Of a stretch of DNA of 9,608 nucleotides, positions 625 to 3,439 are shown one piece after another. This DNA comes from a virus (taxonomy: Duplodnaviria; Heunggongvirae; Uroviricota; Caudoviricetes), in the IMG/VR virus record IMGVR_UViG_2645727905_000011, one strand, 5' to 3'. The notes beneath the pieces were generated by a model. The model was not told where the DNA came from and did no database searches. It saw only the letters and a program-made list of their open reading frames with translations. Positions within the stretch are counted from its first letter, which is position 1. Each line of letters begins with the position of its first letter. A program made the position numbers and the translations under genes.

Positions 625-809
625 CGTCTTCCCTTTTTGCCTGGCGTTACCATCAGGACGCCGTTAACTATTGCGTGACGCTCGCCTTTGCTGTCTCGGT
701 TGTACTTGAGCGCTGTTCCTCTTGCGCAGGAAAGCATCCTCGCCACTTCGGTCTGATTTCCTCGTGTCTGGATAAGAAGCTCTGGTATCGTTTGAATTGT
801 GGCGTTCAT
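621..809 (-). CDS. ninH: NinH-like small DNA-binding protein
   Basis: 62 aa; resembles lambda NinH (conserved ...GNQTEVAR...RGT..KY...HAIVN.VLMV); ATGA overlap with Q start; sits in the canonical nin position directly upstream of Q. Confidence 0.7.
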   Translation of the reverse strand: MNATIQTIPELLIQTRGNQTEVARMLSCARGTALKYNRDSKGERHAIVNGVLMVTPGKKGRR

Positions 810-1168
810 ACGTTCTCCAGTTCGGTGATTTTTATTCCAAGCCTTCCGCCTGGTACTTTCACGCCACGAATTACGCGAATGTCATCGAATTGCTCGTCGT
901 CTTCCGCAAATCCGGCGTGGATAAGGGAGTCGAGTAAACCTTTAAGAATGTTGTCGAGGTCGCGGCGGCGGGAGTCTGGAACGTCTGCGATGACTTTGAT
1001 TCGTAGTCGTGATTTGGTGAAAATGTCTAACTTGAGTTGGCGGATGATTTGCTGAACGTCTTTTCGGTATTTCAGGCCTTTATCGCTGATGTAGTATTGG
1101 CTTCCCCGTCTTCGCCAGTAGGTGTTCACCGACGGCGGGTATGGAAGCACAAACTGATATTCGTTCAT
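806..1168 (-). CDS. rusA: RusA-family Holliday junction resolvase
   Basis: 120 aa; the [11 protein letters not shown] and RRDLDN motifs and the ...GGRLGIKITELENV C-terminus match E. coli RusA over its full length; GGAGG upstream; stop overlaps ninH start. Confidence 0.85.
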   Translation of the reverse strand: MNEYQFVLPYPPSVNTYWRRRGSQYYISDKGLKYRKDVQQIIRQLKLDIFTKSRLRIKVIADVPDSRRRDLDNILKGLLDSLIHAGFAEDDEQFDDIRVIRGVKVPGGRLGIKITELENV

Positions 1169-1431
1169 GACTTAATCTTCCCCTCCTTCAGCAGTATCGC
1201 CTGCGTCCTCATCACGCCTTCGAGGTGGTAAAGTCTGGCGTCTTTGTTGTCGAGAATCCGGGTGCGTCGGTCGATCTCCGCGTGGCAGTCACTACAAGCC
1301 CATGCGCCGATCAGGTCGTCAGGCTTCATTCCCGTTCCGCAAATTCCAGCCAGCCTGGGCAAACGAAATTCGCCTGATGTGTGTGCAGGATGGTCGTACT
1401 CACAAACAAATCTGCGAGATGTACAGCCGCG
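1165..1431 (-). pseudogene. ybcO: DUF1364 (YbcO-like) gene, 5'-disrupted; only a TTG start at 1362
   Basis: C-terminal 65 aa (ICGTGMKPDDLIGAWACSDCHAEIDRR...LKEGKIKS) match the YbcO family. The frame stays open and protein-like (RGCTSRRFVCEYDHPAH...) from the TTG up to an in-frame TGA at 1432-1434, with no ATG/GTG and no SD. ATGA overlap with rusA start. Confidence 0.55.
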
Positions 1432-1434
1432 TCA

Positions 1435-1619
1435 GCCGCGATCCGTTCTGGTGCCGTAACGTGCTCAGCCCGTCGAAGTTGCGGGAAAAATGGGATGAGC
1501 TTTCCCTGCGCTTATCACCGTCCGTCAGCACGTACACCGAAAAACGCGAAGACCCGTACTTCAAATCCAGTTACGACAACGTGGACTACAGCCAGATCCC
1601 GGCAGGATTCAGGGGGTGA
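1435..1619 (+). pseudogene. C-terminal fragment of a DnaT-domain replication (primosomal-like) protein
   Basis: Translation ends ...DNVDYSQIPAGFRG, strikingly like the E. coli DnaT C-terminus (...SQIPPGFRG as I recall). Upstream part of the frame (1302-1434) runs antisense through the ybcO-like homology, so the N-terminus is absent. Stop overlaps the next gene start (GTGA). Confidence 0.5.
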
Positions 1620-2110
1620 TCATAAGTCTTTTGAATGAAGTTCAGAAATTCATTGAAGCCCATCCGGGATGTACTTCCGGAGACATTGCGGATGCTTTTG
1701 CAGGTTACTCACGGCAGCGCGTTCTGCAGTCAGCAAGCAAGTTACGTCAGAGTGGGCGTGTGGCTCACCGTTGTGAAGGAGATACACGCAGACATTTCCC
1801 GCGCCTGACTGAGAGAGCGCAGGAACCGGAACCACAACCAGTTCGAGAAACCAGACCTGTGCGCAATTTCTATGTCGGCACTAACGATCCACGGGTGATT
1901 TTGTGCCTGACCCGCCAGGCTGAAGAACTGGAGTCCAGGGGCTTATACCGTCGTGCTGCAACCGTGTGGATGGCGGCATTCCGTGAAAGCCACTCCCAGC
2001 CAGAACGAAACAATTTTCTGGCGCGTCGTGAGCGGTGCTTACGGAAAAGCAGCAAGCGCGCTGCATCGGGTGAAGAGTGGTATCTGTCAGGGAATTACGT
2101 GGGGGCTTAA
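1616..2110 (+). CDS. Putative regulator: N-terminal winged-helix domain plus C-terminal PerC-like domain
   Basis: 164 aa; C-terminal LTRQAEELESRGLYRRAATVWMAAF resembles the PerC/Pch signature; N-terminal half looks like a winged HTH. No in-frame ATG near the 5' end, so start is GTG 1616 (overlapping upstream stop) or TTG 1631. Confidence 0.55.
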   Translation: MIISLLNEVQKFIEAHPGCTSGDIADAFAGYSRQRVLQSASKLRQSGRVAHRCEGDTRRHFPRLTERAQEPEPQPVRETRPVRNFYVGTNDPRVILCLTRQAEELESRGLYRRAATVWMAAFRESHSQPERNNFLARRERCLRKSSKRAASGEEWYLSGNYVGA

Positions 2111-2763
2111 TGAGTAATAAATATTGCCAGGCGCTGGTGGAACTGCGGAACAAACCAGCCCATGAACTGAAGGAAGTGGGCGATCAGTGGCGCACGCCGG
2201 ACAACATTTTCTGGGGAATTAACACCCTGTTTGGCCCGTTTGTTCTGGATCTGTTCACTGACGGTGATAACGCCAAATGTGCTGCGTATTACACGGCGGA
2301 AGACAACGCGCTGGCGCATGACTGGTCAGAACGCCTTGCGGAGCTTAAAGGTGCTGCCTTTGGTAATCCCCCATACAGCCGCGCCAGTCAGCATGAGGGG
2401 CAATACATCACCGGCATGCGTTACATCATGAAACATGCCAGTGCCATGCGTGATAAGGGCGGGCGCTATGTTTTCCTGATCAAAGCTGCCACCAGCGAAG
2501 TGTGGTGGCCGGAAGATGCGGACCATATTGCTTTTATTCGCGGGCGTATTGGTTTTGAACTGCCTGCCTGGTTTATCCCGAAGGATGAGAAGCAGGTGCC
2601 GACAGGCGCTTTCTTCGCTGGTGCTATTGCTGTTTTCGACAAGACCTGGAAGGGACCGGCAATCAGCTACATCGGGCGCGATGAACTTGAGGCATGTGGT
2701 GAGGCCTTTCTGGCGCAGGTTCGCCAGCAGGCGGAAAAACTGGTCAGGGAGATGGCTGCATGA
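2110..2763 (+). CDS. Phage-type DNA N6-adenine methyltransferase (Dam family)
   Basis: Catalytic NPPY motif (GNPPYS); size and layout typical of phage Dam; ATG 2110 overlaps the upstream stop (TAATG); an alternative GTG start at 2077 is possible. Confidence 0.85.
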   Translation: MSNKYCQALVELRNKPAHELKEVGDQWRTPDNIFWGINTLFGPFVLDLFTDGDNAKCAAYYTAEDNALAHDWSERLAELKGAAFGNPPYSRASQHEGQYITGMRYIMKHASAMRDKGGRYVFLIKAATSEVWWPEDADHIAFIRGRIGFELPAWFIPKDEKQVPTGAFFAGAIAVFDKTWKGPAISYIGRDELEACGEAFLAQVRQQAEKLVREMAA

Positions 2764-3086
2764 CGACGTTAACTCAATGCCAGCAGCAGGTGCTGGATAT
2801 GCTGATTTCTTACCAGAAAGAACGTGGCTTCCCGCCAACCAATCAGGAGGTGGCAACCATGCTGGGATACCGTTCAGTGAATGCAGCGGTGGAGCATCTT
2901 CGAGCACTGGAGAAAAAAGGCGTCATCACGATAAAGCGTGGCGTGGCCCGGGGGATAACGCTTCATACCGCGATGAAGGACGACGACAGCGAGGCGGTCG
3001 GGATTATCCGCGCACTGCTTGCCGGTGAGGAAAACAGCAGGCTGCGTGCAGCCCACTGGTTACATGAGAGGGGCCTGAAAGTATGA
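2760..3086 (+). CDS. LexA N-terminal DNA-binding-domain-like protein with no S24 peptidase domain
   Basis: 108 aa; residues 1-70 align with the LexA DNA-binding domain (QQQVLD...GFPPTNQEVATMLGYRSVNAAVEHLRALEKKGVI...RGVARGI); a hinge-like LLAGEE follows but no protease domain. AGGGAG SD; ATGA overlaps with both neighbours. Confidence 0.7.
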   Translation: MTTLTQCQQQVLDMLISYQKERGFPPTNQEVATMLGYRSVNAAVEHLRALEKKGVITIKRGVARGITLHTAMKDDDSEAVGIIRALLAGEENSRLRAAHWLHERGLKV

Positions 3087-3439
3087 AGCTGATTCTGCCT
3101 TTTCCGCCCAGCGTGAACACGTACTGGCGACACCCCAACAAAGGGGCGTTTGCTGGTAAGAGCCTGATAAGCGCGGCGGGGCGAAAATTCCAGAGCGCGG
3201 CGTGCGCAGCAATAGTTGAGCAGTTACGTCGTTTGCCGAAACCAACGTCGGCACCAGCTTCAGTAGAGATTGTGTTGTTTCCTCCGGATAACCGGATCCG
3301 CGATCTGGACAACTATAACAAGGCGCTGTTTGACGCCCTGACCCACGCGGGTGTGTGGGAAGACGACAGTCAGGTGAAAAGAATGCTGGTTGAGTGGGGA
3401 CCGGTTAACCTCGAAGGCTTTCCGGTAGAGCGGAATTGA
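3083..3439 (+). CDS. RusA-family resolvase paralog with altered C-terminus
   Basis: 118 aa; [11 protein letters not shown] and IRDLDN motifs. Last ~10 codons (LEGFPVERN) diverge from RusA and lie antisense to the helicase-like fragment, suggesting the 3' end was replaced at a junction. Confidence 0.7.

Follow-up and report, generated by a model that had tools for sequence, protein, structure and literature searches.

Among known systems, one of the closest to the locus discussed here is rusA from DLP12, a defective lambdoid prophage of E. coli K-12 (structures 1Q8R and 2H8C/2H8E). [quoted passage not shown] Another relevant system is the early right module of Shigella phage SfII, mEp460, and CPS-53/KpLE1-like prophages, with the gene order O-yfdN-dam-lexA-like-rusA-kilA-DUF968-Q. 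More generally, the lambdoid prophages of E. coli are known to become mosaic through illegitimate joints and through recombination with one another.

We analyzed a stretch of 9,608 nucleotides ("the window"; IMG/VR record IMGVR_UViG_2645727905_000011). It covers the early region of a degraded lambdoid prophage. The whole remnant, ~17.6 kb long, has yegL/ibs on one side and mdtA on the other, and its host lineage of E. coli encodes the effectors EspJ and NleG. An earlier note on this DNA had described two divergent resolvase genes in inverted orientation. Here we ask what the two genes are and how they came together.

Two rusA reading frames of different origin

Both reading frames are present exactly where they had been placed (Table 1), and both belong to the RusA family, as the earlier note had proposed. 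Activity in this family means Mg2+-dependent, symmetric cutting of Holliday junctions and the ability to suppress ruv mutations. Against the Pfam RusA model (PF05866, which has a gathering score of 22.8 bits), rusA1 scores 60.0 bits (E = 4.5e-16) and rusA2 scores 52.8 bits (E = 7.8e-14). RusA1 contains RRDLDN, RusA2 contains IRDLDN, and a second motif named in that note is found in both. The two proteins are 39% identical over 105 amino acids (BLASTP, E = 5e-22). In a sensitive self-BLAST, the likeness between the copies at the nucleotide level was confined to a 17/18-nucleotide match (1112-1129 versus 3113-3130, E = 0.27) and a 36-nucleotide match at 75% (E = 3.3). Because these matches are so short, a recent duplication is ruled out, which agrees with the earlier note. 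Its suggestion that the copies came from two phage lineages also holds: window 1-1352, with rusA1 and its flanks, is 96-97% identical to HZ41, mEpX1/2, Gally, and HK97, whereas the block with rusA2 (1351-3417) is 97-99.9% identical to SfII, mEp460, SKA5, and the CFE299 prophage.

Table 1. Genes, gene remnants, and junctions in the window (coordinates are positions in the window).
Feature	Coordinates	Strand	Description
Q-type antitermination gene	1-624	-	Lambdoid backbone; PGAP "antitermination protein" WP_001235472.1; 99.5% identical to L002
ninH	621-809	-	Backbone; Pfam Phage_NinH, E = 6.4e-23
rusA1	806-1168	-	Intact gene for a 120-aa RusA resolvase, part of the backbone's own nin region; Pfam RusA positions 1-123 of 124
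ybcO/DUF1364 remnant	1165-1352	-	N-terminus lost at J1; ~62 C-terminal codons; Pfam YbcO positions 33-91 of 92 only
J1	1351-1352		2-bp microhomology CA in imperfect patch CAnCC; backbone ybcO / donor O-like gene
O-like/HTH replication gene, 3' remnant	1353-1619	+	Donor; last ~88 codons; PGAP pseudogene "protein YdfO, missing N-terminus"
yfdN (PerC family)	1616-2110	+	Donor, intact; Pfam PerC, E = 7.9e-9; WP_001305611.1, identical in L004
Phage N6-adenine DNA methyltransferase	2110-2763	+	Donor, intact; Pfam Dam, E = 1.1e-45; WP_000066917.1, identical in L004
108-aa gene, LexA DNA-binding domain only	2760-3086	+	Donor, intact; LexA_DNA_bind, E = 2.9e-19; WP_001547992.1
rusA2	3083-3439	+	Chimeric 118-codon reading frame; Pfam RusA positions 1-110 of 124 only; junction alignments
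J2	3406-3407		2-bp microhomology TA in imperfect patch CGGnTAnCC; donor rusA / backbone dnaB
DnaB-like replicative helicase, 5' remnant	3408-3541	-	Backbone; first ~44 codons; Pfam DnaB N-terminal domain, residues 3-45
Replication initiator, 3' remnant	3538-3879	-	Backbone; PGAP pseudogene "missing N-terminus"; 97% identical to L003 10946-11426
J3	3879		1-bp overlap; alignment; in the window, L003 position 11426 directly adjoins 16428

By sequence, rusA1 is an intact resolvase gene. Besides its full-length match to the profile, RusA1 aligns to E. coli RusA (1Q8R) across residues 1-119 with no gaps (E = 2.9e-25), and the catalytic residues D70, D72, K76, and D91 are conserved (RRRDLDNILK...EDDEQ, at matching positions). 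As in DLP12, the gene encodes 120 amino acids and lies in the ybcO-rusA-(small ORF)-Q context of a defective prophage. Unlike DLP12's rusA, it belongs to another prophage, which is HK97/mEpX-like and sits at the yegL-mdtA locus, and its sequence has clearly diverged from K-12 RusA. The gene order Q-ninH-rusA-DUF1364 is shared with intact relatives (L003 and L016). Because pR and the immunity region have been deleted, rusA1 is probably transcriptionally silent. In this respect it resembles the quiescent rusA of K-12, in that it probably has no early promoter.

RusA2 also keeps the catalytic Asp/Asp/Lys/Asp (IRDLDNYNK...EDDSQ aligns to D70, D72, K76, and D90/D91 of 1Q8R). On alignment, then, the acidic residues are in both copies. 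(The earlier note had said that its reading would fall if one copy lacked them, or if the copies were highly identical as DNA; neither is the case.) But only codons 1-108 of rusA2 (3083-3407) come from the donor's rusA, which has 129 codons when intact. Codons 109-118 and the stop codon come from reading the backbone's dnaB-like gene on its antisense strand. The last 21 codons of the donor gene, including the conserved fourth beta-strand, have been swapped for 10 unrelated codons; where rusA2 diverges, the intact donor RusA continues ...GPVIPKGKVEITISK.... Intact homologs of RusA2 have 128-132 amino acids and a conserved G-(K/R)-VEITI strand, and this strand is missing from RusA2.

We also compared AlphaFold2 models, using equally deep alignments for the chimeric protein and for an intact homolog. 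(AlphaFold2 is not a stability predictor.) With these alignments, which were shallow (79-94% identity plus RusA1), the chimeric RusA2 was modeled with three strands, a mean pLDDT of 68 (below 50 at residues 107-118), and a TM score of 0.40 to RusA structures, while the intact homolog had four strands, a mean pLDDT of 78, and TM scores of 0.77-0.87 to RusA crystal structures. Neither the alignment nor the model gives RusA2 the complete fold of four strands and two helices. Because the last of the four core strands is missing, rusA2, a chimeric gene fragment, is most likely non-functional as a resolvase, despite its catalytic residues. So, the earlier note was correct that there are two rusA reading frames, but "two resolvases" was an overstatement, since rusA2 is truncated at its 3' end and chimeric. 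In RefSeq, this chimeric, truncated product is WP_024224716.1. Its annotation describes an intact "RusA family crossover junction endodeoxyribonuclease," but it is not to be taken for a second functional resolvase.

A foreign block in a decaying prophage

The inverted block has 2,055 bp (1351/1353 to 3405/3407, with 2-bp overlaps at each end that are common to the backbone). It stands in place of ~3.6 kb of backbone, from codon ~45 of dnaB to codon ~33 of ybcO. Contrary to the earlier note, rusA2 does not flank the block but is the last gene inside it.

In content, the block corresponds to the O'-yfdN-dam-lexA-like-rusA module found in SfII/CPS-53-like phages: window 1351-3407 matches this module collinearly, at 97-99.9% identity. 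The identity to SfII is 97.1%, and window 1351-3415 is 99.86% identical to the CFE299 prophage (2 mismatches and 1 gap), which encodes the same YfdN, Dam, and LexA-like proteins. (The LexA-like protein WP_001547992.1 is also identical in L004.) The O-like remnant is collinear with a 313-codon gene in L004 (7328-8269) and with SfII gp41. In contrast to the SfII-type module, the window keeps only an internal piece, which lies backwards in another phage's operon. Its O-like gene lacks ~225 N-terminal codons, its rusA lacks 21 C-terminal codons, and kilA, DUF968, and Q, which are normally downstream, are absent from the captured piece. Of the earlier proposal that a foreign nin segment was captured, foreign capture is the best description, but the block is not purely nin, as it starts inside an O-like replication gene. 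In the Z1323HEC0067 genome, the donor module matched at this one place only, and the donor phage is absent. As a side observation, the lineage's ancestral allele of the block differs from CFE299 only at position 1624, and 1624 is a private SNP of this strain.

The surrounding backbone is lambdoid and HK97/mEpX-like, with the order Q-ninH-rusA-ybcO. The window's minus strand carries the rightward operon (repO, dnaB, nin genes, ybcO, rusA1, ninH, and Q) and its plus strand carries the leftward operon (kil, rad52-like, ssb, xis, and int). PGAP independently flagged ybcO', ydfO', dnaB', and repO' as partial pseudogenes. (The ybcO remnant is "missing N-terminus" and the dnaB remnant is "missing C-terminus"; the intact dnaB gene has 1,377 nucleotides in L002 and L003.) At J3, a deletion of ~5.0 kb has taken cII, cro, cI, N, and the pL/pR region, and it ends 3 bp upstream of the start codon of kil (ATG at 3883). 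Across the remnant, the immunity region and most of the lysis, head, and tail genes are deleted; the head genes are absent, and what is left of the holin and tail-tip genes is fused (L001). With no cI, cro, pL, or pR, only fragments of repO and dnaB, and wrecked lysis and morphogenesis genes, this is not a functional lambdoid prophage. A crude and weak consensus scan found no sigma-70-like sites on the minus strand at 1-4400 or on the plus strand upstream of 4038, and scans of the region for Rfam families, tRNAs, promoters, and terminators gave nothing relevant.

The junctions were placed using alignments and the raw sequence. At J1, in three- and five-way alignments, homology to the backbone stops at 1352 and the match to the donor begins at 1351. 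At J2, matches to the backbone start at 3401-3406. Since lambdoid prophages are a classic source of mis-assembly, one might suspect that two prophages were mis-joined. But the 28-mers across J1, J2, and J3 are matched exactly at 6-7 loci in assemblies that are independent of one another: two complete genomes, four other assemblies, and one metagenome scaffold. Because the junctions recur independently, an assembly artefact is refuted, and we consider its probability to be negligible. The arrangement is real and heritable.

It is also restricted to one lineage. J1 or J2 is present in only 2 of 5,426 complete E. coli genomes, and this E. coli lineage can be recognized by the J1, J2, and J3 sequences, which are specific to it. 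The chimeric 118-amino-acid protein is listed in 105 index blocks, and the arrangement is found in more than 100 assemblies. Three of the loci (L010-L012) have identical junctions and differ by only 1-3 SNPs across 8.8 kb.

How the arrangement arose

We propose that the arrangement is an ordinary decay scar, in which a foreign SfII-like fragment was captured by illegitimate recombination in a degraded HK97-like prophage (probability of roughly 0.8). The ~3.6 kb of backbone would have been lost in a single illegitimate recombination, or in two such events that were tightly linked. An inverted piece of the early right operon of an SfII/CPS-53-like temperate phage, with the 3' end of its O-like gene, yfdN, dam, the gene for the LexA DNA-binding domain, and codons 1-108 of rusA, would have been inserted in the gap. 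The ends may have been joined by microhomology-mediated end joining or by template switching during replication. Joints with only 2 bp of strict microhomology, each in a short imperfect patch, are in line with these mechanisms but not with homologous or site-specific recombination. We did not recover a pre-capture ancestor among the complete genomes, so we infer the number and order of the events. There are also no intermediates with only J1 or only J2 among the 5,426 complete genomes. An identical int-mdtA joint is found in just three other complete genomes (RM14723, 2015C-4136CT1, and Z1323HEC0355). We rejected these as ancestors: they have another form of decay, with IS3 and a lambda P/ren/NinG nin region.

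Another history would be that a whole SfII-like phage once lay, in the opposite orientation, in the nin/replication region of the backbone, and that two independent deletions trimmed it to 2 kb. J1 and J2 would then be plain deletion scars like J3. The block's orientation is compatible with this, the remnant already bears two or more further scars of simple deletion (J3 at position 3879, and holin'/tail-tip' in L001), all of the scars have 1-2 bp of microhomology, and deletion is the prevailing process of decay. However, three events would be required, including an integration at a non-canonical site. SfII/CPS-53-type phages integrate at tRNA genes, and there is no tRNA gene in the window. Nor is there a nested intermediate among the 5,426 complete E. 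coli genomes. We consider a nested prophage unlikely.

The earlier note had also raised a past inversion. The block might once have been co-oriented, in a hybrid phage with tandem rusA genes, and flipped later, perhaps by recombination between these genes, which are inverted relative to each other and share a conserved stretch that encodes the motif. But the DNA they share is just the 17/18 nucleotides, and the minimum for RecA-dependent exchange is ~25 bp. Also, the ends of the block do not coincide with the rusA homology: rusA1 is ~180 bp outside the block. A repeat search and self-BLAST found no inverted repeats or recombinase sites at either end of the block (1351 or 3407), and all of the loci with the junctions share one orientation, so the block does not look like an invertible segment. 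Finally, un-inverting the block would leave fusions of dnaB codon ~45 to O' and of rusA2 codon 108 to ybcO codon ~33, so the inversion explains nothing extra. A simple inversion in place finds no support in these data and is hardly plausible.

Could the block have been selected? It might be kept as a domesticated module, for the functions of yfdN, dam, and the LexA-domain gene, or for RusA1 and RusA2 acting together. The first three genes are intact here and do not differ from their counterparts in active phages, and the arrangement has persisted in over 100 assemblies. But clonal descent explains this persistence, given the identical junctions and few SNPs in L010-L012. Furthermore, rusA2 is truncated, the crude scan detected no promoter, the block is edged by gene wreckage, and an intact copy of the module is present in about 1,600 other genomes, which implies that nothing is specific to this copy. 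Selection for such a module is highly improbable. A more elaborate scenario has a single template switch or fragment capture from a superinfecting or since-lost SfII-like phage, after which the block would be kept because YfdN, Dam, and the LexA-domain protein are intact, are co-transcribed with the co-oriented kil-rad52-ssb genes, and influence host regulation in this strain with its effectors; the truncated RusA2 might even interfere with RusA1 as a heterodimer partner. We view this scenario as very unlikely.

Comparison with mosaic prophages

As a decay scar, the locus offers an example, resolved to the base pair, of a defective prophage gaining a foreign fragment by illegitimate joining at the level of microhomology, with the fragment afterwards trading patches with other resident copies of its module. 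Beyond annotation hygiene, its importance is slight: it is prophage wreckage and not a new system.

The locus resembles E. coli's pools of mosaic and defective lambdoid prophages in that modules were exchanged between unrelated temperate phages, the prophage decayed by deletion, and the captured block was later patchily gene-converted by other resident copies of the module. It differs from viable mosaics in that its joints have 2-bp microhomology and cut through genes, instead of being homology-guided exchanges at module boundaries, and in that the product is not viable as a phage.

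Two rusA genes of different origin

Both rusA genes are exactly where the earlier note had placed them (see the table), and both match the RusA family in Pfam (PF05866) with scores (60.0 bits for rusA1 and 52.8 bits for rusA2) that are far above the curated cut-off of 22.8 bits. The pairing cannot be put down to chance. Over 105 residues, the two proteins share 39% identity, and DNA similarity is confined to 17/18 nt that code for the PPSVNTYW motif and to a weak 36-nt match. The copies did not arise by a recent duplication, in agreement with the note.

Positions in the window and state of the features discussed in the text
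Feature	Position	Strand	Description
rusA1	806-1168	-	ORF of 120 aa, Pfam RusA match
rusA2	3083-3439	+	ORF of 118 aa, Pfam RusA match
DUF1364/YbcO gene			partial, without N-terminus (PGAP and Pfam coverage concordant)
'YdfO' gene			partial, without N-terminus (PGAP and Pfam coverage concordant)
DnaB-like gene			partial, without C-terminus (PGAP and Pfam coverage concordant)
Replication gene			partial, without N-terminus (PGAP and Pfam coverage concordant)
J1 (backbone ybcO/donor O-like gene)	1351-1352		strict microhomology CA; imperfect patch CAnCC
J2 (donor rusA/backbone dnaB)	3406-3407		strict microhomology TA; imperfect patch CGGnTAnCC
J3 (immunity-region deletion)	3879		1-bp overlap; no imperfect patch
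HNH endonuclease gene	4998-5465	+	
LprI-family (lysozyme inhibitor) gene	6988/7015-7713	+	

The window has a 100% identical match in E. coli Z1323HEC0067 (NZ_CP148378.1), where it forms the early part of a ~17.6-kb prophage remnant (in locus L001) flanked by yegL/ibs and mdtA. (Beyond the window, L001 12348-18139 retains genes for the T3SS effectors EspJ and NleG, a Lom-family gene, and tail-fibre genes.) In intact relatives of the backbone (L003, and also L002 and L016), the gene order is Q-ninH-rusA-DUF1364-...-ninB-dnaB-repO-cII-cro-cI-N-...-kil-rad52-ssb-...-xis-int. Phages HZ41, mEpX1/2, Gally, and HK97 match window 1-1352 with 96-97% identity, and rusA1 is therefore native to this backbone. 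The alignment of RusA1 with E. coli RusA (1Q8R) is free of gaps, and D70, D72, K76, and D91 are conserved (the roles of these residues are described in PMC1636454). Judging from its sequence, rusA1 is a full-length resolvase gene.

In contrast, rusA2 lies in a segment from another phage lineage, as the earlier note had suggested. This 2,055-bp block is 97-98% identical to phages SKA5, SfII, mEp460_4F5, and PhiR49, and 99.86% identical to a prophage of isolate CFE299. The module that matches window 1351-3415/3417 is found in 1,622 of 5,426 complete E. coli genomes. Its intact order is an O-like replication gene, yfdN (PerC family), dam, a gene with a LexA DBD, rusA (129 aa), kilA-N, DUF968, and Q. 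The window carries only an internal piece, with the 3'-terminal ~88 codons of the O-like gene and codons 1-108 of rusA at its ends and with yfdN, dam, and the lexA-like gene intact. Relative to L003, the block stands in inverted orientation in place of ~3.59 kb of the backbone (7355-10946).

Junctions and origin of the inverted block

The junctions were placed by multi-way alignments with two backbone and two donor references. J3 is a ~5.0-kb deletion which removed cII, cro, cI, N, and both early promoters and which ends 3 bp upstream of the ATG of kil (3883). (Both pL and N are thereby lost to kil and the entire leftward operon of recombination genes.) A fourth scar lies to the left of the window, where a 5' fragment of a holin gene is fused to a 3' fragment of a tail-tip gene (L001 18008-18018).

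The earlier note had also proposed an inversion, but a simple inversion does not account for this arrangement: if the block is flipped back, the dnaB'/O' and rusA2'/ybcO' fusions persist; we found no inverted repeats at the block's ends; and rusA1 lies outside it. We also consider homologous or "relaxed homologous" exchange unlikely, as the joints have 2 bp of identity and lie within coding sequences. The most parsimonious route would be microhomology-mediated illegitimate recombination, in which a linear fragment was captured during break repair or the replication machinery switched templates. About 3.6 kb of backbone would have been exchanged for a foreign fragment of 2.06 kb that happened to enter backwards. 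Since Z1323HEC0067 has a single copy of the module and the donor is gone, the fragment may have come from a superinfecting phage or from a prophage that is no longer present.

The main rival is that a complete SfII-like phage was once nested here in the opposite orientation and that two independent deletions then trimmed it. This element clearly decays mainly by deletion, but nesting would require an unusual integration, and we found no intermediate; we think it improbable. In our view, illegitimate recombination has left an ordinary scar here, in a mosaic prophage that is decaying. Both the kind of event and the gene families are already known.

Distribution and later changes

The 28-mers across J1, J2, and J3 have exact matches in two complete genomes, four further assemblies, and one metagenome scaffold. 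Sequence across J1 or J2 is present in just 2 of the 5,426 complete genomes, and no genome has one of these junctions without the other. The chimeric 118-aa protein occurs in 105 blocks of the assembly-collection index, with constant neighbours. Thus, the rearrangement is genuine, occurred once, and was inherited within one lineage.

Differences among members of this lineage are concentrated within the captured block. The sister strain Z1323HEC0423 shows 10 differences from the window, 8 of them in 1624-1963 (the one at 1624 is a private SNP of the window's strain, and the other seven are tightly clustered at 1801-1963). In the metagenome scaffold, 20 of 21 differences fall in 1624-3271. Several of the variants are SfII-type alleles, and Z1323HEC0423 has three additional copies of the module. 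This pattern suggests gene-conversion patches from resident SfII-like prophages, with assembly mixing as an alternative for the metagenome scaffold.

Three other complete genomes (RM14723, 2015C-4136CT1, and Z1323HEC0355) have a different wreck at the yegL-mdtA locus, with an IS3 element that truncates both int and the lambda-type P gene, and with NinG and a phosphatase in place of ybcO-rusA-ninH in the nin region. Because they share a 100% identical joint between the 3' end of int and mdtA and the wrecks differ, this site is host to independently decaying mosaics.

In the window, the HNH gene is flanked by ssb and the gene for the Rad52-like recombinase. The stretch 5001-5477 is missing in L002 and L003, where rad52 abuts ssb, and is present in strain A25. 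This pattern is typical of a mobile (homing-type) HNH gene. The LprI-family gene lies in a low-GC stretch (38-45% GC) and is followed by two self-complementary stretches (7718-7745 and 7758-7810) that look like hairpin terminators, an arrangement like that of a moron inserted into the early-left region.

Predicted state of the two rusA genes

The earlier note had described two resolvases, but rusA2 is a truncated chimera. The donor reading frame stops after codon 108, and the frame continues on the antisense strand of the dnaB remnant, which supplies codons 109-118 and the stop codon. Intact homologues have 128-132 amino acids, and past GPV they all read x-P-K-G-K-VEITI..., which is nearly invariant. 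The note had named a copy without the catalytic acidic residues as grounds for refutation, but all of the catalytic residues are present in RusA2. (P0012, a homologue of RusA2 that represents a cluster of 3,158 SfII-type RusA sequences, reads RELDN and not RDLDN where the first catalytic aspartate would be; 19 other full-length sequences were aligned, and they all have the aspartate.)

The solved structure of RusA has a mixed sheet of four strands and two flanking helices (PMC1636454). We built AlphaFold2 models of an intact homologue (P0015) and of the chimeric RusA2 at comparable alignment depth. The model of P0015 has four strands (2-5, 59-66, 98-105, and 113-120; mean pLDDT 78) and is similar to RusA crystal structures (TM 0.77-0.87, rmsd ~2 Å). 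The model of the chimera has three strands (mean pLDDT 68, and below 50 over residues 107-118) and is much less similar (TM 0.40, rmsd ~6 Å). RusA2 thus lacks a strand of the core and most likely has no activity. RefSeq/PGAP lists this 3'-truncated chimera as an ordinary intact CDS (WP_024224716.1) and its four neighbours as pseudogenes.

We found no sign of a two-resolvase system in this analysis. Because pR, pL, and the immunity region are lost, and because we detected no sigma-70-like sites ahead of rusA1 or rusA2 (which is weak evidence), both genes are probably silent passengers. Similarly, the rusA of the K-12 prophage DLP12, to which we liken rusA1, is quiescent and is active only after an upstream IS insertion (PMC1636454).
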